Both the position numbers and the translations under genes were made by a program. The notes beneath the pieces were generated by a model. The model worked only from the letters and a program-made list of their open reading frames with translations. It was not told where the DNA came from and did not search any database. Positions 363 to 13,282 of a DNA stretch of 64,000 nt are shown in pieces. The first letter of the stretch is position 1, and every line of letters begins with the position of its first letter. Source of the stretch: an uncultured Acidobacteriaceae bacterium (GTDB lineage: Bacteria > Acidobacteriota > Terriglobia > Terriglobales > Acidobacteriaceae); assembly GCA_963732305.1 (NCBI GenBank), contig CAVSYW010000002.1:860694-924693 (forward strand), read 5' to 3'.

Positions 363-1658
363 TCAGGCTCGACGGCCATCGCGCACGTTGGCAAAGAAAT
401 TTTCGGGGCCGATCTGGCCGCCTTTGAGCGCGAGTTCGAGTCCATCGAGTGGCGATGCTGCGCTGCCCCGGCAGAGCGGCACGCCGGCCACGAGCGGCGC
501 GGCAAAGGTCAGTGCGTCGATCCCCAGTTGCTTCACGGCATGAGTTGCCGTATCGCCGCCGGCGATCAGAACCCGGCGCACGCCGGTGGCGAGGACGAGC
601 TTGCGCAACAAAACGCCGAGGGCCGTGCCGAAACTTTCGCCGCGCTTTTCGTTCGGAATCTTTGGGCCGAGGGCGGTGTAAAGCACGACACTACGGCCGC
701 TCCTGAGCGATTTATGGGCGTTCGCTGCGACGGTGTTCCACGGTCCCGCGCCTTCAAGACGCCATGCGGCAAACCCCATCTGTTTCGCGCGACGAATCTG
801 CGTGGCCGTCACCGGCGAGCAGCTTCCGCTGAGCACCAGGAGCCGATCGACGGGCGGCGCGGGTTCGAGTGCCTGCGCGGCATGGATCAGTCCCATCGAG
901 CGCCAATGATGCAGAAGCCCATGCGTGAGACCGGAGCTGCCCACGGCAAAGACCGGCTGCACCGCCGCGCGTTCCCAGAGAATGCGTGCGGTTTCCTCAA
1001 GCATGGCGTCGGAGAAGCCATCGAAAACGACGGCGCCGGTATGAGCGGCCACCAGGCGCTGCCAATGTTTCTGCGCGGTTTGTGATTGGAAGGCGGCCAG
1101 ATTGACGAGGCCCATCGGGAGCTTTGTCTGCCGGGCGAGATGCAGGCGCAGGTCGGCCTCCGTCATGGGCGTCACAGGATGACGCCGCATGGTCGGATGG
1201 CGGTCGATGCGGTACATCACGCCGTCGGCCTTGGCGAACAAGTTCCCGAAGACAACGGCGCGTCCCAGGTGCGGCGCTCCCACGACGACAGGAACCGTGC
1301 CGGCGCGAAATACCTGGCGGCCCAACTCCATTGCGCGGCCAATACTGCCAACGCTGGGCGAGCTGTCAAATGTGGAGCAGACTTTGTAGTGATTTACCGG
1401 GGCGCCGAGCCGCCGCATGGCGCGAAAGATTGCGGGCAGATTGCGGCTCATCCATGCGGGTCCGCGGCTGCGGCTTTCGCCTGCGATTCCCACCGCGCGG
1501 CAATCGGAGAAAGCGGCAAGGGCACGCGCATCGGGCGTGCGCGTGAAAAGAACGGCCTTGACGCCGTGAAGCGCCAGCGCTTCAAGCACGTCGGTGGAAC
1601 CGGTAAAGTCGTCGCCGTACCAGACATAGAGCGGATGCGCTGCTGGTTGCGTGCTCAC
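363..1658 (-). CDS. oiaK: Four-carbon acid sugar kinase family (DUF1537/DUF1357_C), OiaK-like
   Basis: GDDFTGSTD, HYKVCSTFDS, LSGSCSP, IAGGDT, LKGGQIG motifs; GTG start at 1658 overlaps the RLP TGA (GTGA coupling). Confidence 0.85.
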   Translation of the reverse strand: MSTQPAAHPLYVWYGDDFTGSTDVLEALALHGVKAVLFTRTPDARALAAFSDCRAVGIAGESRSRGPAWMSRNLPAIFRAMRRLGAPVNHYKVCSTFDSSPSVGSIGRAMELGRQVFRAGTVPVVVGAPHLGRAVVFGNLFAKADGVMYRIDRHPTMRRHPVTPMTEADLRLHLARQTKLPMGLVNLAAFQSQTAQKHWQRLVAAHTGAVVFDGFSDAMLEETARILWERAAVQPVFAVGSSGLTHGLLHHWRSMGLIHAAQALEPAPPVDRLLVLSGSCSPVTATQIRRAKQMGFAAWRLEGAGPWNTVAANAHKSLRSGRSVVLYTALGPKIPNEKRGESFGTALGVLLRKLVLATGVRRVLIAGGDTATHAVKQLGIDALTFAAPLVAGVPLCRGSAASPLDGLELALKGGQIGPENFFANVRDGRRA

Positions 1659-2944
1659 GCGGCAAACGCCTCCAGCGCGGAGCGCAACTCTTCGTGGATT
1701 TTTGCATATTCGGCGAGAGCGATGCCCGCTGCCGCCGCTTCCCACGCTTGATGCAGACTGCGCACGCCTGCGGCAGGACCCGCGGGGTGGGCGAGAATTC
1801 CTCCACCACAGGCATAGATCAGATCCATCGAACCGAGCGCCTTGTATGTATCCGGCGCCTGGCGCGCGGACTGGCCCGAGGAAAAGACCGGCATGATCTC
1901 GCAGCCCTTATGCGGTGAAGGGAACATGGGCTTGAGACACTCTCGCGCGGATGCGATGACGCTCGCGTCGTCTTCGCAAAATTTGTTGCGCAGGCCGTTC
2001 ACGTGGATGTGATCGATGCCGGCGAGCCGCCAGAACTTCTGGAAGGCGATGAAGCTCATTCCCGTGGCATGCGAGCGGCTGAACATGCCCCAGCCGTTGC
2101 GATGGCCATGGATGGCTACCTGCGCATGACGACGCAGCGCGGTCATTGCGGGAAGGCCCACACTATTGACGCTGACCATTACACATGTGCCGCCGGAAGC
2201 GACCACCAGGTCATGACGGCGCAGCATCTGGTCAATTTCGCCGGTGATGTTGGCGGCATACATCGGCCGTTTGCCGATTCTCTCGGCGTATTCGTTCAGG
2301 GCGCGCAGGACCGCGGGAACTCGCTGATCGAAGGGGCAGTGGGGCCCGTCCGATTGCAGTTCGTCGTCCTTGATGAAATCGACGCCGGCCTCGGCCAGCA
2401 TCTTCACTTGTGCCGCGGTTTGCTCCGCCGAAAAGCCGACGCTCGGCTTGATAATCGTGCCGATGATCGGGCGCCCGTGGACGTTTGTGAGCCGCCGCGT
2501 GCCTTCCACGCCGAATTGCGGACCCAGATATGCAGACAGGAAGGCGGGCGGCAATGTGACGTCGAGCAGCTTGAGGCCGGAGAACGGCTTCAGCTCGAAG
2601 AGATTGCCCGCGACGGTTGCCAGCAGGTTGGGGAGCGAGGGGCCCATGTTTTCGATGGGCCAGGAAAGTGTGACTTCCGCGACGCGGCGCACCACGGGGC
2701 CGGTGTGTTTTCTCGGGAGGCCGGAACCGGCGAGCGACGGGGTATCGACTGTGCCCAATTCGACGATTCGCTCTACGCGCGCGGCGTGGCGCTCGCGGAG
2801 TTCGTCGGTTTCGCCTGGAACGCGCACAAACGTTCCAGTAGACTGCTCGCCTGCCATGGTCGCGGCCGCCTCTTCGAGCGGGAACGCCGTCTCGATCCAA
2901 TATCGTGCGTAAACTCGATCCGTACCTGGGGTCTGGCTTGTCAT
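1655..2944 (-). CDS. RuBisCO-like protein (form IV), 3-oxo-isoapionate-4-phosphate transcarboxylase/decarboxylase (OiaT/OiaX)-like
   Basis: GEQSTGT, AGNLFEL, GTIIKPSVG, DFIKDDE (carbamyl-Lys motif), HGHRNG, PVFSSG, CGGGILAHP; no small subunit; coupled to a DUF1537 kinase. Confidence 0.9.
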   Translation of the reverse strand: MTSQTPGTDRVYARYWIETAFPLEEAAATMAGEQSTGTFVRVPGETDELRERHAARVERIVELGTVDTPSLAGSGLPRKHTGPVVRRVAEVTLSWPIENMGPSLPNLLATVAGNLFELKPFSGLKLLDVTLPPAFLSAYLGPQFGVEGTRRLTNVHGRPIIGTIIKPSVGFSAEQTAAQVKMLAEAGVDFIKDDELQSDGPHCPFDQRVPAVLRALNEYAERIGKRPMYAANITGEIDQMLRRHDLVVASGGTCVMVSVNSVGLPAMTALRRHAQVAIHGHRNGWGMFSRSHATGMSFIAFQKFWRLAGIDHIHVNGLRNKFCEDDASVIASARECLKPMFPSPHKGCEIMPVFSSGQSARQAPDTYKALGSMDLIYACGGGILAHPAGPAAGVRSLHQAWEAAAAGIALAEYAKIHEELRSALEAFAA

Positions 2945-2953
2945 TCTTGTTCT

Positions 2954-4741
2954 CTAAACATGCTGGGCATACATCGTGTAGGCTTCATCGCGCACGAAAT
3001 AGAAGGGCGCGTAGGTTCGTGTCCGGTCCGCGGAGTGGAATGAAAAAACTCCCGCCATCTCCGCCGCGGGCCGTAAGGTCTCCTGAATTGCGTAAGTGGT
3101 CTCACCTTCCGCGGGCTTCTGCTCGACATAGACCAGCGGACCACGCAACAGCGCCACCGTCTCGGGATGCAGATCGTCGATTGCTTCTGTGCGAAATTGC
3201 ATGGGCAGTTGAAGAGTGAGCGTATCGCCGCTGGTCCAGCGACGCCGCACCACCGCAAATCCTCGCTCGATATCCGCATGCACCGATCTTCCATTAATGC
3301 GAATCGGCGGCGTCTCATTCATCCACGCAGGAACCCGCAATTGCATCGTGAACTGGGCCGGAGCAGTGCAAGTGACGCGCAAAGACACCGTCTCCCCCAG
3401 CGGGTATTCCGTTTCCTGCGTCAGCGTGACCGTAACTCCGCGCTGCAACCATTTCACGCGCGATGGCGCGTACAAATTGACGGCCACGCCGTCCCTCGCG
3501 CGGAAGTAAACATTCTTCACGTAGTCCGCGACGCTCTCCACGAGGGTTCCCGAGCAGCACGGCCATTTCTTGGCATAGAAAACCTTGTGCGCCGCCGCTC
3601 CATAGGTCGAGTAGTAGGGGTAATCACCGTCGGCGTCGGGTTCTTTCACCGCGAGAACGCCGTTGAAGACGACGCGCTCCAAACCGTCGCCGTAGCGCGC
3701 ATCGCCGGTGGCACAGAGGAGGTAACGCGCGAGTTTGATGGCTGCGTAACTGCCGCAGGGCGTCTCGAAATGATCGTTGGTTGTATGCAGGCTCTCGTAG
3801 AGTTGGCCTTTGCGCGGCTCGATGAATGTCTCGTTCGGCCCCCAACCTCCGGTGGCGAATTGCTGTGTGGATGCGAGAAGTTGCGCCGCGTTTTGCATGG
3901 CACGCAGATATTTTTCGTCGCCCAGCACGAGCCGCGCTTTGCCCGCCGAACTGAGCGCGATGACGTGGCTGTAAGCGTGCCGGCCCGGCAAAACATCCTG
4001 CCCCGCGGCAAGCGGATCGAAGTAATCGCGGTCAAGCATGTAGGCCATCGCGCGGTCGTACAGCGCGCGATCTCCAGTGAGCTCATGAGCGAGAAAAAGA
4101 GACTCGGGCAGAACGTAGGTCTCGTCGTAGGGAGGATCTTTCTTGCCGACCCGGTCGCGCCCGCGTTCGGGAATATACGGAAGAGCACCGTGAAACACGC
4201 GCGGAACAAGATCACGCGCATCCGAAATGCCGCTCAGATTGTACGCATCCATCAATCCGGCAAGGTGTTTGTCGAGGATGTAGCAGGGCCATACGTTTTC
4301 GGCGTTGGGCCCGGCAAAGCACTGGTATTTGGGGCCGAGAGTGGCCGCGAATCCATTTACCAACGCGGCAACCTTCGCAGCGCAGGCGGCGTCACCGGTG
4401 GTTCGGCCGATCCGAGCCAGCCCGGAGATGTATTGCCCAAGTGAATGGCCCGGTACGAAGCCATCGTGGCCGTACCAGCCGCCCATCGGCTCGCCCGGAG
4501 CAGGCAATCCAGCGCGTTCGCGATAGACCTTCAGCAGCCGATCGTTATCGAGGGCGAGATATGCAGCATGAATGCGATCGTACTGGCTCTTGAGAGGCCC
4601 ACCCGTCAGCTCGACCGCTCCATAATCGAACTCGGCCAGCACTTCAGACGCGCTGGGAAGGGCGGTTGTGCTTGCACCGCTCGCCAGTGTGGCCGCGGCT
4701 GCACCGGCTAGAAATTCCCTTCTCGTAATTTCGTTGTCCAT
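2954..4741 (-). CDS. GH127(/GH146) glycoside hydrolase with Tat signal (beta-L-arabinofuranosidase/aceric acid hydrolase family)
   Basis: TRREFL twin-arginine leader; GHSLGQY, HAYS, ETPCGSY and WPCCSGT (Cys3 Zn site) motifs; C-terminal beta-sandwich (TLTQETEYP, LRVPAW). Confidence 0.88.
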   Translation of the reverse strand: MDNEITRREFLAGAAAATLASGASTTALPSASEVLAEFDYGAVELTGGPLKSQYDRIHAAYLALDNDRLLKVYRERAGLPAPGEPMGGWYGHDGFVPGHSLGQYISGLARIGRTTGDAACAAKVAALVNGFAATLGPKYQCFAGPNAENVWPCYILDKHLAGLMDAYNLSGISDARDLVPRVFHGALPYIPERGRDRVGKKDPPYDETYVLPESLFLAHELTGDRALYDRAMAYMLDRDYFDPLAAGQDVLPGRHAYSHVIALSSAGKARLVLGDEKYLRAMQNAAQLLASTQQFATGGWGPNETFIEPRKGQLYESLHTTNDHFETPCGSYAAIKLARYLLCATGDARYGDGLERVVFNGVLAVKEPDADGDYPYYSTYGAAAHKVFYAKKWPCCSGTLVESVADYVKNVYFRARDGVAVNLYAPSRVKWLQRGVTVTLTQETEYPLGETVSLRVTCTAPAQFTMQLRVPAWMNETPPIRINGRSVHADIERGFAVVRRRWTSGDTLTLQLPMQFRTEAIDDLHPETVALLRGPLVYVEQKPAEGETTYAIQETLRPAAEMAGVFSFHSADRTRTYAPFYFVRDEAYTMYAQHV

Positions 4742-4784: not shown

Positions 4785-4816
4785 GGCCGCCGAAGGTCAA
4801 ACTTCGGCGGCCTTTT
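4785..4816 (+). terminator. Strong hairpin overlapping the regulator stop (U-run on + strand)
   Basis: GGCCGCCGAAG-gtcaaa-CTTCGGCGGCC-TTTT; a second hairpin at 4762-4784. Confidence 0.45.
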
Positions 4817-6038
4817 GATTCCGCAAAGCGGAATTTTCGGGGCCGCTCGCCGACTTGTGCGCGGCGCCTACCGCAGCCTCATCGAGAGGGTACACGAGGG
4901 CCACATTGCGCGGGGTCAACAACTGGTGCTTGACGAAGATGGCCGCCGGCACTGGTTTTTGCTGCAGAATATTGAGCGCCAGGGGAATCAGTTCATCGCC
5001 GTAGCGTTCGGGGAAATAGGCCACCGATCCGACCAGCCGCGTGCCCGGCCTGCGCAATTCCGCGCGCGCTTCGCGGAGGGCATTCTGGCCCATCACGGCG
5101 CACTGCTGCGATGCGCCGGCTTCTTCAAAAGCGCGCAGCGCGGCCAGTGCGCAGATATCGTTCACCGTGCCCACGAGCGTGCGGCGCGGTTCGCGGCGGC
5201 GCAGGTACTTGCGCAGCACGTCGAGCACCTGTTCAAAATTTCCGCGGCCGTTGAGCCGGACCAGCGGAGCCTCGACAATTCTCGGCAACTCCGCGCGCAG
5301 CCCGTCGACCAGGCCGGAAAGGCGCAACTCCAGGAGCGACCCGGCGATGGGCAGCTCCACAAGAACCAGCTGATCCACCTTGCCTTCCCAGTTTTCGCGC
5401 GCCCAACGGCCCAGGGCGCGACCGCCGATGAGCCCGGCCTTATAATTATCCGCGCCGAAGTAAGTAGCGCCTGGATGCGGCACTTCGATGGCGATGACGG
5501 GCACGTTTGCGGCCAGAAATTTTGAGGCGATGACGGGCGCCACGCGCTCGTAGGTCTGGAATTCGAGGACCAGGTCGACGCGTTCGCGAATCAGCACATC
5601 GGCGTTGCGCAACGCCTCGCGGGCGCTGTAGCGATTGTTGAGGGTGATGAGCTGCACGTGCTCACGCGCCGCTGCGTTGACCAAGCTGCGCGTCACCTCG
5701 CGCGCAAATTCAGTGTCGCCCTGCGTAGCAAAACCGATGCGGAAAGGCCGCGCCGTGACCGGTCCAAAACTGTTGCGATAGACGCCCGCACTCACGCGCT
5801 CCACCAGCCCGCCGTGAATGAGCGTGCGCAGCAGGCGAAAGGTGGTGGTCTTGGGCAGGCCGGTGCGCTCCATTACAGTGGTGAGCGGCAAATCTTCTCC
5901 GAGATGACGAAAAGCTTTGAGCACTTCGCATGCGCGCAGAACAGTCTGCGACTCATTGCGGTCGCTGCTGCGGCCATTCGCCTCCGCGGCGTCCTGCTCC
6001 AGATCCTCCGGGGCCTGTTTGTCCTCGCGTCGCGCCAC
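4797..6038 (-). CDS. Transcriptional regulator: IclR-type HTH fused to a periplasmic sugar-binding-like domain
   Basis: N-terminal SQTVLRACEVL...TGLPKTTTFRLLRTL HTH followed by a LacI/RbsB-type domain (VIAIEVPHPGATYFGADN, VMGQNA). Confidence 0.85.
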   Translation of the reverse strand: MARREDKQAPEDLEQDAAEANGRSSDRNESQTVLRACEVLKAFRHLGEDLPLTTVMERTGLPKTTTFRLLRTLIHGGLVERVSAGVYRNSFGPVTARPFRIGFATQGDTEFAREVTRSLVNAAAREHVQLITLNNRYSAREALRNADVLIRERVDLVLEFQTYERVAPVIASKFLAANVPVIAIEVPHPGATYFGADNYKAGLIGGRALGRWARENWEGKVDQLVLVELPIAGSLLELRLSGLVDGLRAELPRIVEAPLVRLNGRGNFEQVLDVLRKYLRRREPRRTLVGTVNDICALAALRAFEEAGASQQCAVMGQNALREARAELRRPGTRLVGSVAYFPERYGDELIPLALNILQQKPVPAAIFVKHQLLTPRNVALVYPLDEAAVGAAHKSASGPENSALRNQKAAEV

Positions 6039-11256: not shown

Positions 11257-12338
11257 GTTCCGCCACGCACAACCAACCGCGCGTCCATCGTTTCGCGTTG
11301 GCGTCGGCTCGCGCTATTCTGCTTCTGCTGCGGGCCCGCGCCATTATGGTGCTGGTGTTGCTTCTCGCCTTGTTCTCCGTGCTTGCCCCTGAGTTTCTCA
11401 CCGCCAACAACCTCTCGATCCTCACCAAGCATGTAGCCATCACCGCAATTCTTGCGGTGGGGATGACCTTTGTCGTGCTGACCGGCGGCATCGATCTATC
11501 AGTTGGCTCCATCGCAGGACTCGGCGGTATGGTGGCGGGTTATCTTCTCACGCAGGGGCTCTCGATTGGCGGCGGGACGCATTATCCGCCTGTCGCCATC
11601 GTCATCCTGCTCACGATCTGCGCGTGCCTGCTGGTGGGTGCGCTCAACGGATGGCTGGTTGCCAAGGCCGGCGTCGCTCCGTTCATTGCGACGCTGGGCA
11701 CGCTCTATATCGCACGCGGCGCGGCGCTGTTGATCTCGAACGGAAAAACGTTTCCTAATCTTGGCGGCGGAGCATCGAGAGGCAGTACGGGATTCCCCGC
11801 ATTCGGTCAAAGTTTCCTGCTGCATGTGCCCACGCCGGTCTGGATGATGATGGCGCTCTTCGCTGTGGCGTGGGTGGTGGCGACGAAGACCCCGTTCGGC
11901 AGGCATGTATATGCGATTGGCGGAAACGAACGCGCGGCGCGGCTGGCGGGCATTCGCGTGGCGCAGGTGAAGGTGGCCACGTATGTCTTTTCGGCGTTCT
12001 GCGCTGCGCTGGTCGGGCTCATCATCGCGGCGCAACTGGAGGCCGCACATCCGGCAACCGGTGAAAGCTTTGAGCTGAACGCGATAGCGGCGGTGGTGCT
12101 GGGCGGAACGTCGCTGATGGGCGGCCGAGGCTCGGTGACGGGCTCGCTGATTGGCGCGTTTGTGATCGGGGTTCTTGCCGACGGCCTGGTGATGCTGGGC
12201 GTTTCTGAGTTTTGGCAGATCGTGATCAAAGGCGTAGTGATTGTGCTGGCCGTCGGACTCGATCAGTTGCAGACGCGGCTGCAGGCCAGGATTCTGCCGT
12301 ACTTGACTACGGCGAGCGTCGGGGAAGGCCAATCATGA
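11253..12338 (+). CDS. Sugar ABC transporter permease (RbsC-like)
   Basis: TGGIDLSVGS, FIATLG, FGRHVYAIGGNERAARLAG, IAAVVLGGTSL. Confidence 0.95.
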   Translation: MSSATHNQPRVHRFALASARAILLLLRARAIMVLVLLLALFSVLAPEFLTANNLSILTKHVAITAILAVGMTFVVLTGGIDLSVGSIAGLGGMVAGYLLTQGLSIGGGTHYPPVAIVILLTICACLLVGALNGWLVAKAGVAPFIATLGTLYIARGAALLISNGKTFPNLGGGASRGSTGFPAFGQSFLLHVPTPVWMMMALFAVAWVVATKTPFGRHVYAIGGNERAARLAGIRVAQVKVATYVFSAFCAALVGLIIAAQLEAAHPATGESFELNAIAAVVLGGTSLMGGRGSVTGSLIGAFVIGVLADGLVMLGVSEFWQIVIKGVVIVLAVGLDQLQTRLQARILPYLTTASVGEGQS

Positions 12339-13282
12339 TGCGCCGCGCGCTTGCCCTGTTTGGATGCGGGTTGGCGCTGCTGCTTGTGTGCGCCGGATGC
12401 CACCGCGACCAGCATCGCAAGAAGTTGATCGTCATCATTGTTCCTTCGCAAGACAATCCCTATTTCAAGGCCGAAGCCGATGCCGCCGCCGCGCGCGCGC
12501 TCGAACTCGGCTATCGCGTGCGCGTGGACGCGCATGAAGACGACGCGTATCGTCAGGACAACCTGGTGGATGCAGCCATCGCCTCGAATGCAGCGGTCAT
12601 CATATTGGACAATGCGGGCGCCGATGCAACCGTGTCTGCGGTCCGTCGCGCAACCAAAGCGGGCATCGCAGTGTTTCTCATTGACCGAGAAATCGACGCC
12701 ACGGGGATTGCGAAGGCGCAGATCATTTCAGACAACGATCAAGGTGCGCGGCTGGTTGCGGCGGAGTTTGCGCGCGCGATGAACGGAAAGGGCGAGTACG
12801 CGGAGCTGATTGGCAAAGAATCCGACACCAACGCCCAGATTCGCACCAAAGGCTTTCACGCCGTGCTCGATCGGTTTCCGGGCCTCAAGCTGGTCTCCGC
12901 GCAGTCCGCGAACTGGTCGCAGTCGGAGGCGTTTCAAAAGACAGAAACCATGCTGCAAGCCCACGGGAATATCGCAGGCATCATTGCCGGGAACGATACG
13001 ATGGCTCTGGGAGCCGCGGCGGCAGTGAAGTCCGCCGGGATTTCGAACCTGCAGATCACAGGATTCGATGGCAGCCCCGATGCGATTGACGCCATCAAGG
13101 CCGGCGAGTTGCGTGCCACCGCCTTGCAGCCGGCCGTGCTGATCTCTCGGCTCGCAGTGGACGAGGCAGATCGGTTTTTGAAGACGGGCTCGACCGGCCA
13201 GCAGGAACTGCAAATCATTCCCTGCGAGCTGGTCACTGCCAGCAATGCGGGCGACTATCGCAATTTTGAAAAGGTAAGGTGA
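12335..13282 (+). CDS. Sugar ABC substrate-binding lipoprotein, D-apiose-binding-protein-like
   Basis: Lipobox VCAGC; segments DNPYFKAEA, LDNAGADA, FLIDREI, GKESDTNA, SANWSQ, GNDTMA, recalled as characteristic of apiose import binding proteins. Confidence 0.8.
   Translation: MMRRALALFGCGLALLLVCAGCHRDQHRKKLIVIIVPSQDNPYFKAEADAAAARALELGYRVRVDAHEDDAYRQDNLVDAAIASNAAVIILDNAGADATVSAVRRATKAGIAVFLIDREIDATGIAKAQIISDNDQGARLVAAEFARAMNGKGEYAELIGKESDTNAQIRTKGFHAVLDRFPGLKLVSAQSANWSQSEAFQKTETMLQAHGNIAGIIAGNDTMALGAAAAVKSAGISNLQITGFDGSPDAIDAIKAGELRATALQPAVLISRLAVDEADRFLKTGSTGQQELQIIPCELVTASNAGDYRNFEKVR

Follow-up and report, generated by a model that had tools for sequence, protein, structure and literature searches.

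A RuBisCO-like protein of an OiaT-type clade encoded between a GH127-like glycosidase and a DUF1537 kinase in an uncultured Acidobacteriaceae bacterium

Among the RuBisCO-like proteins (RLPs, form IV of the RuBisCO family), three described types serve for comparison with the enzyme analysed here: OiaT, the 3-oxo-isoapionate-4-phosphate transcarboxylase/hydrolase (EC 3.7.1.28), which PMC6302742 and PMC13753588 assign to the D-apionate route; the decarboxylase OiaX; and MtnW, the 2,3-diketo-5-methylthiopentyl-1-phosphate (DK-MTP-1-P) enolase of methylthioadenosine (MTA) salvage. The stretch of DNA under study (hereafter the window; 64,000 nucleotides of contig CAVSYW010000002.1, assembly GCA_963732305.1, from an uncultured Acidobacteriaceae bacterium) encodes one RLP of 429 amino acids, P0001, as the middle gene of an operon that also contains a GH127-like glycosidase and a DUF1537 kinase. 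Comparison with its relatives makes P0001, with moderate confidence, a form IV RLP of OiaT type, the type described for the oxidative D-apionate route; it is a new representative of an already described enzyme class. The OiaT pathway referred to throughout is reportedly that of Carter et al., 2018 (Nat Chem Biol 14:696).

Family assignment of P0001

The RLP gene is an uninterrupted frame on the minus strand only, the plus strand being broken by a stop. Its product matches both Pfam domains of the RuBisCO large chain, RuBisCO_large (PF00016; E 2e-69) and RuBisCO_large_N (PF02788; E 1.9e-11), so the motifs that it carries reflect homology and not a chance assembly. An AlphaFold model obtained from a 32-row alignment (pLDDT 91.4, pTM 0.90) superposes on the RLP structure 3NWR with TM-scores of 0.90/0.95 and a root-mean-square deviation of 2.0 A, and the next ranks are occupied by other RLPs and by form III RuBisCO. 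3NWR is also the nearest solved structure by sequence (408 bits; about 48-55% identity). This structural-genomics entry from Burkholderia fungorum, whose name carries no function, shares the GEQS, KDDE, H-x-H-R-N-G and SSGQ motifs with P0001 and differs from it by an Asn at the position of K177 (spinach numbering) and by a loop 6 that reads H-V-H-G-L-A-G-K instead of H-V-N-G-L-R-N-K. The presence of both large-chain domains and of the fold, the retention of K192, D194 and E195 and the replacement of some residues specific for ribulose 1,5-bisphosphate place P0001 in form IV. Its relatives at 82-90% identity are labelled Terracidiphilus or Acidobacteriaceae.

Phylogeny and gene context support the assignment. 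Maximum-likelihood analysis of 87 sequences places P0001 in a clade (support 99) to which all the RLPs linked to ApnO also belong (from Xanthobacteraceae, Burkholderiales and Bryobacterales), the three OiaX lineages branching as a clade of their own (support 100). The layout RLP-kinase-ApnO is found in loci of P0001's clade from Microvirga, Xanthobacteraceae, Paraburkholderia and Bryobacterales; with the RLPs of such ApnO-OiaK-RLP clusters P0001 shares 62-75% identity, a DUF1537 kinase partner and the active-site signature described below. The Microvirga RLP, 62% identical to P0001, belongs to an ApsD-ApnL-...-RLP-kinase-ApnO cluster that is devoid of erythrulose-phosphate isomerases, the layout in Microvirga ossetica comprising an ABC transporter, a dehydrogenase, a large hypothetical protein (ApnL), the RLP, the kinase and ApnO. 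We take this isomerase-free layout to be the one expected of an OiaT route, the products of which would need no further dedicated enzymes. Plasmid pRetNXC12e of Rhizobium etli, by comparison, encodes a PGAP-named OiaX together with a kinase, a triose-phosphate isomerase (TIM)-like isomerase, RpiB, a protein with a 6-phosphogluconate dehydrogenase C-terminal domain (ApnO), an ABC transporter and a Gfo/Idh/MocA dehydrogenase. Within 10 kb of the RLP, none of 80 related loci has a TIM-like or RpiB-type isomerase, and the only matches in the source genome are located on another contig, C5; this absence fits products that enter central metabolism directly. In addition, the KO-derived name "3-oxoisoapionate-4-phosphate transcarboxylase/hydrolase" is attached to JGI entries 86% identical to P0001, as well as to entries about 80% identical to a Xanthobacteraceae member of its clade.

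The main functional alternative within this branch of the superfamily is a plain decarboxylase of OiaX type, which would release CO2 and a ketose-1-phosphate to be processed by other enzymes. Among the NCBIfam models, the OiaX model NF042437 is indeed the best match of P0001, and both proteins share the kinase partner, the class of substrate, K175, the K201-D203-E204 triad, H294, R295, W298, K334 and the phosphate-binding glycines, the K177 position being Ser or Ala in OiaX. Nevertheless, the score of 445.5 bits remains far under the equivalog cut-off of 700, the identity to the PGAP-named OiaX is 44% and the OiaX lineages branch apart, on which grounds P0001 was rejected as an OiaX equivalog. 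The distinguishing residues point in the same direction: OiaX proteins carry Asp at position 60, Gly at 123, Gln at 325 and 327, Tyr at 335 and Gly or Cys at 379, whereas P0001 presents Glu, Asn, His, His and Phe at positions 60, 123, 325, 327 and 335, so the OiaX pattern is absent, and it also keeps S379; E60, N123, H325, H327 and S379 are lost in all three OiaX lineages. The R. etli OiaX cluster, furthermore, has TIM-like and RpiB isomerases, and no such isomerase stands beside the P0001 gene. Simple decarboxylation is an improbable function for P0001.

More distant families score lower against their own thresholds. The MTA-salvage RLPs, which were set apart by scores of hidden Markov models only, are represented by the MtnW models TIGR03332 (136 bits, cut-off 513.6) and NF007095 (182.5 bits, cut-off 409). 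MtnW belongs to the same superfamily and has the same fold (the Geobacillus kaustophilus structure 2OEM reaches a TM-score of 0.85 to the P0001 model), but its identity to P0001 is 27%, and methionine-salvage genes are absent from the neighbourhood. These scores, together with the position of P0001 in the ApnO-linked clade, support the enzyme class proposed in the initial annotation, that of an RLP of apiose-pathway type which handles a beta-keto acid, and not an enolase/isomerase of MTA salvage. A true RuBisCO was considered as well and rejected, given that P0001 falls below all the RuBisCO cut-offs (the form III/large-subunit models TIGR03326, 260 of 497 bits, and NF003252, 246 of 438; the PRK13475 carboxylase model NF010002, 172 of 489) and has Ser in place of K177. 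With bona fide RuBisCOs of forms I-III it has in common the fold, the carbamyl-Lys/Mg triad, E60, N123, K175, H294, R295, H327, K334, S379 and the glycine phosphate site; it differs from them in lacking K177, T173, H298, W66, L335 and G380, and neither a small subunit nor prk or cbb genes are encoded nearby.

Active-site residues and the proposed reaction

P0001, 85 relatives and the form I large subunit of a Phyllobacterium (L088) were aligned and scored at 23 active-site columns. Sixteen of them are in the RuBisCO-like state in P0001: E60 (E33 of P0001), T65 (T38), N123 (N114), K175 (K166), K201 (K192), D203 (D194), E204 (E195), H294 (H281), R295 (R282), H325 (H312), H327 (H314), K334 (K321), S379 (S355), G381 (G357) and G403/G404 (G380/G381). 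The other seven differ, namely K177 (S168), S61 (Q34), W66 (F39), T173 (I164), H298 (W285), L335 (F322) and G380 (S356). The initial annotation had described a nearly full RuBisCO catalytic set in which only the K177 equivalent was missing. Every motif that it listed exists in the protein and the K177 position is Ser168 as it claimed, but the completeness of the set was somewhat overstated, six further positions being replaced.

The change at K177 is not peculiar to P0001 either. Ser occupies this position in 79 of the 80 members of the clade (Asn being found in the sole exception, as in 3NWR) and also in one OiaX; it is thus the normal state of the whole OiaT-type clade, and its interpretation as a special trait of P0001 was discarded. 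The complete 23-position string recurs without change in 74 of 86 relatives in the alignment, at 54-90% identity to P0001, including the RLPs of the ApnO-kinase-RLP (D-apionate) clusters. Its carriers are distributed among Acidobacteriota, Alpha-, Beta- and Gammaproteobacteria, Acidimicrobiia, Chloroflexi and one haloarchaeon.

Which of these residues speak for carboxyl transfer is a separate matter. The initial annotation had argued for transcarboxylation from the retention of H294 and of the loop-6 Lys. This argument does not hold, because three lineages of PGAP-named OiaX decarboxylases keep H294, R295 and the loop-6 Lys (K334), and the retention of these three residues cannot favour carboxyl transfer over decarboxylation. 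In RuBisCO, E60 latches the loop-6 residue K334, which together with N123 holds the CO2 as it enters and the newly formed carboxylate, and H327 and H294 contribute to hydration and cleavage. The retention of E60, N123 and H327 is therefore the better sequence argument for a reaction of OiaT type, and the conclusion on the enzyme class stands, as a prediction, on these other residues.

Homology, combined with the published mechanisms of OiaT and RuBisCO, suggests the following course for the reaction. A branched 3-oxo acid sugar would receive a phosphate from the co-translated DUF1537 kinase at the primary hydroxyl beside its keto group, and the RLP would hold this phosphate at S355, G357, G380 and G381, with the keto and hydroxyl oxygens bound to a Mg2+ ion held by carbamylated K192, D194 and E195. 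Loss of the beta-carboxyl would then give an enediolate of RuBisCO type, to which CO2 would be re-added at the neighbouring carbon with the aid of K321, E33 and N114. Hydration of the new ketone and cleavage of the C-C bond, in which H281 and H314 would act, followed by a final protonation from K166, would yield 3-phosphoglycerate and a 2-hydroxy acid, which would be glycolate in the case of 3-oxo-isoapionate-4-phosphate.

Substrate supply and context across relatives

Several points weigh against an OiaT function for P0001. The clade owes its OiaT label to gene context and KO-based names, and NCBIfam has no OiaT model, the sole named match being that of OiaX below its cut-off. RLPs of the clade with the identical signature also occur in other contexts, which means that the signature does not fix the substrate. 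Above all, two queries for ApnO and one for ApnL found no match at E 1e-5 in tblastn searches of the source genome, which spans 4.92 Mb and is 91% complete, and the canonical substrate consequently has no known source there; a clear ApsD is missing as well. The genome contains a single RLP and a single DUF1537 kinase. In contrast to the described OiaT clusters, the RLP gene lies in the middle of a GH127-like/RLP/kinase operon, within a locus of pectin glycosidases of rhamnogalacturonan-II (RG-II) type that also carries a putative transketolase route for apiose.

This arrangement is not restricted to the source genome. The context was surveyed in the 80 related loci, with a reach of 10 kb around the RLP and grouping by tree labelling. 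A GH127-like gene lies directly upstream of the RLP, with no ApnO within 10 kb, in 36 of them (Acidobacteriaceae, Sphingomonadales and Steroidobacteraceae), and the GH127-RLP-kinase order recurs on a Croceibacterium plasmid. Of the other loci, 25 carry ApnO without GH127, four carry both and 15 neither (two of the latter with a gene of the short-chain dehydrogenase/reductase (SDR) family instead, and some of the rest on short contigs). In the tree, the ApnO-linked clade encloses the GH127-linked RLPs as a subclade of their own (support 90). Whole-genome searches detected no ApnO in nine of 14 GH127-type genomes, among them the source genome, the complete genome of Telmatobacter bradus and a Granulicella chromosome; in the other five ApnO was found, and where the contigs matched, as in several sphingomonads, it lies 15-25 kb from the RLP. 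Isolates lacking ApnO include T. bradus DSM 23630, Bryocella elongata DSM 22489 and Sphingomonas kyeonggiensis DSM 101806. This distribution shows that selection maintains the kinase-RLP pair in genomes unable to make 3-oxo-isoapionate by the known enzyme.

RLP-kinase-SDR clusters constitute a further context, in which sister RLPs with the identical 23-position signature occur in R. etli (L004:8986-12448, pRetNXC12d), in Oxalobacteraceae and in the loci L082 and L087. A KDG-type permease is present and ApnO absent in the clusters of R. etli pRetNXC12d, L082 and L087. This sister group probably acts on another, uncharacterised 3-oxo acid-sugar phosphate.

With regard to the GH127-linked pairs, a second reading keeps the chemistry proposed for OiaT but places it in an ApnO-independent route for an acidic branched sugar that would already have the oxidation level of a 3-oxo acid, for which the best candidate is L-aceric acid (3-C-carboxy-5-deoxy-L-xylose) from side chain B of RG-II. 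Aceric acid is an aldose with the same tertiary carboxyl, and its 2-keto isomer corresponds to 3-oxo-isoapionate with one additional methyl. In such a route, the exported GH127/146-like enzyme would free the sugar, a major facilitator superfamily (MFS) transporter for acid sugars would import it, a racemase-fold protein would isomerise the aldose to the 2-ketose, and phosphorylation of the ketose by the kinase would allow the RLP to give 3-phosphoglycerate and lactate. We regard this as a tentative proposal and a rather unlikely one, for which the conservation of the GH127-RLP-kinase triad in the 36 loci and on the Croceibacterium plasmid and the lack of detectable ApnO in nine of the 14 genomes with the triad nonetheless speak, since maintenance of the pair without ApnO fits the idea of aceric acid as the feed. 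Apiose, moreover, probably has another route in these organisms, given that an AptA-like subunit of a split transketolase was found in 10 of the 10 other GH127-type genomes searched and that the source genome carries the corresponding operon within the window. The loci also contain GH78, GH106, GH29 and GH42 enzymes, SGNH esterases and a separate GH140 apiosidase (an ApnO-less sphingomonad locus, for instance, carries GH106, GH78, GH42 and the GH140 apiosidase), and the GH127-like enzyme is hence not needed for the release of apiose. A search of one literature collection returned no paper tying the breakdown of aceric acid to an RLP.

Also in favour of the aceric-acid proposal, the racemase-fold gene is the neighbour most specific to the GH127 type, being present in 32 of the 36 GH127-type loci and in four of the 25 ApnO-type loci (examples of the reading frame are L008:13835-14563, minus strand, and L047:11264-11947, plus strand). 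Its product, of about 225 amino acids, conserves a single Cys (VTCSSIG); the second catalytic Cys is missing, the corresponding segment reading VLAQASM (VLAQASMARV). We know of no sugar isomerase with a racemase fold, which weighs against this route, as do two frameshifts in the copy of the source genome. In this copy (L002:10401-11110, plus strand, upstream of the MFS gene, equivalent to G000:C2 ~859,094-859,803) the Asp/Glu-racemase-fold gene runs through three reading frames, broken by single-base insertions near L002 positions 10503 and 10779, and the homologues elsewhere, such as that of T. bradus (locus L016), are intact, with 222-245 amino acids; it is either a pseudogene or an assembly error.

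The RLPs themselves offer little to separate aceric acid from the D-apionate substrate. The catalytic positions are the same in GH127-linked and ApnO-linked proteins (23/23), the branch leading to the subclade is short and only five soft positions, T36, D47, R86, A231 and I310, differ between the groups, all of them following the phylogeny. At residue 231 (2252-2254), located inside barrel strand 3 of the model, the GH127-linked RLPs have Ala, whereas OiaX and distant ApnO-linked RLPs have Phe and intermediate lineages Val or Cys; this residue was not counted as evidence. GH127 and ApnO coexist in one operon in two acidobacterial loci, arranged as ApnO-MFS-ApnL-GH127-RLP-kinase (L022:3886-12639) and as GH127-RLP-racemase-MFS-kinase-ApnO (L047:7527-15351), layouts that may be ancestral, with ApnO lost later. 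Together with the presence of ApnO 15-25 kb away in several sphingomonads, these loci weigh against the aceric-acid route. The anticorrelation between GH127 and ApnO has a raw Fisher p of 5e-8, but no more than 5-6 phylogenetically independent contrasts underlie it and its significance disappears when kinship is allowed for, so it was rejected as independent evidence. Finally, the glycosidase is nearer to a GH146 arabinofuranosidase (BT0349, structure 5OPJ, its best-matching solved relative; 137 bits) than to the aceric-acid hydrolase BT1003 (structure 5MQO; 52 bits), and its score with model NF049879 is 93 bits for a cut-off of 950.

Loss of ApnO could also have left the kinase-RLP pair of the source strain without a substrate, as an evolutionary remnant. 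The absence of ApnO and ApnL and the doubly frameshifted racemase-fold gene nearby would be consistent with this; the RLP, kinase and GH127-like genes are, however, intact, all the catalytic positions are retained and nine genomes from two phyla have preserved the triad in the absence of ApnO, at 70-90% identity, which makes a remnant very improbable. An enzyme of OiaT type is the reading that we favour for P0001.

The operon, its surroundings and their significance

The features of the window are collected in Table 1. The kinase gene follows that of the RLP, a pairing found in 76 of the 80 related loci, the remaining four being short or ending just past the RLP. Its longest open reading frame begins at a GTG at position 1745, inside the RLP gene, but the in-frame GTG at 1658 is the likelier start, because it overlaps the RLP stop (GTGA) and leaves the motif GDDFTGS near the N-terminus. 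The overlap of the RLP stop with this predicted start suggests translational coupling of both genes. On the other side, the stop codon of the GH127/146-like gene is located 9 nt before the RLP start; the protein that it encodes has a TRREFL leader, predictive of export through the twin-arginine translocation (Tat) system, and the motifs ETPC and WPCC.

Table 1. Position of the RLP, its active-site segments and neighbouring genes in the window
Feature	Coordinates	Strand	Basis or remark
RLP (form IV), P0001, 429 aa, OiaT-type clade	1655..2944	minus	open reading frame, Pfam, NCBIfam, tree, fold
E33, equivalent to E60, retained (Asp in OiaX)	2846..2848	minus	alignment
N114, equivalent to N123, retained (Gly in OiaX)	2603..2605	minus	alignment
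K166-P-S168: K175 retained, Ser at K177 position	2441..2449	minus	alignment columns
K192-D-D194-E195: carbamyl-Lys and Mg ligands (K201, D203, E204)	2360..2371	minus	invariant in 87/87 aligned sequences
H281-R282-N-G-W285: H294 and R295 retained, H298 replaced by Trp	2090..2104	minus	alignment
H312-I-H314 ... K321-F322: H325, H327 and loop-6 K334 retained, L335 replaced by Phe	1979..2011	minus	alignment
DUF1537 acid-sugar kinase, OiaK-like	363..1658	minus	Pfam SBD_N and NBD_C; OiaK model NF042436, 449 bits (cut-off 700)
GH127/GH146-like glycosidase, Tat-exported (predicted), operon gene 1	2954..4741	minus	Pfam GH127 catalytic and middle domains
Regulator with IclR helix-turn-helix and periplasmic-binding fold, separating the operon of the RLP from the facing operon of the putative transketolase route	4797..6038	minus	Pfam; Acidobacteriaceae loci keep it beside the triad
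Periplasmic binding protein of the facing ABC transporter	12212..13282	plus	55% identical to the binding protein of the R. etli apiose (OiaX) cluster

Beyond the regulator, the facing operon encodes a split transketolase, an FGGY kinase, an ABC transporter and a gene product with a fucose-isomerase fold. The identity between the binding protein of this transporter and its R. etli counterpart fits the uptake of apiose to feed the transketolase-type operon. To the left of the window, a convergent MFS transporter, nearest to the D-galactonate (acid-sugar) transporter family, a point in favour of the aceric-acid proposal, is accompanied by the racemase-fold gene discussed above. GH29 fucosidase, GH78 rhamnosidase, GH43-like and GH42 genes are found further left (L002:2305-10153), and GH140 apiosidase-like genes 15-30 kb away (G000:C2:845266-846030 and 828361-829143). 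As a whole, this region looks like a locus for the utilisation of RG-II side chains.

With respect to the significance of these results, the residue pattern of P0001 as such, Ser at K177 included, matters little, since this signature is standard in an already known RLP clade. The contrast with OiaX is more informative: E60, N123, H325/H327, L335 and S379, and not H294 or K334, separate the presumed transcarboxylase/hydrolase clade from OiaX and provide concrete targets for mutagenesis, positions that bear on how the RuBisCO fold keeps or loses the re-addition of CO2. At the level of the locus, the GH127-like/RLP/kinase triad of nine ApnO-less genomes, embedded in glycosidase loci of RG-II type, is a pointer to an unknown feed, possibly aceric acid. 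To our knowledge, no pathway for the breakdown of aceric acid has been described; if the route proposed above were true, it would be the first catabolic route for this sugar and would add a new natural substrate to the carboxyl transfer of RuBisCO type.

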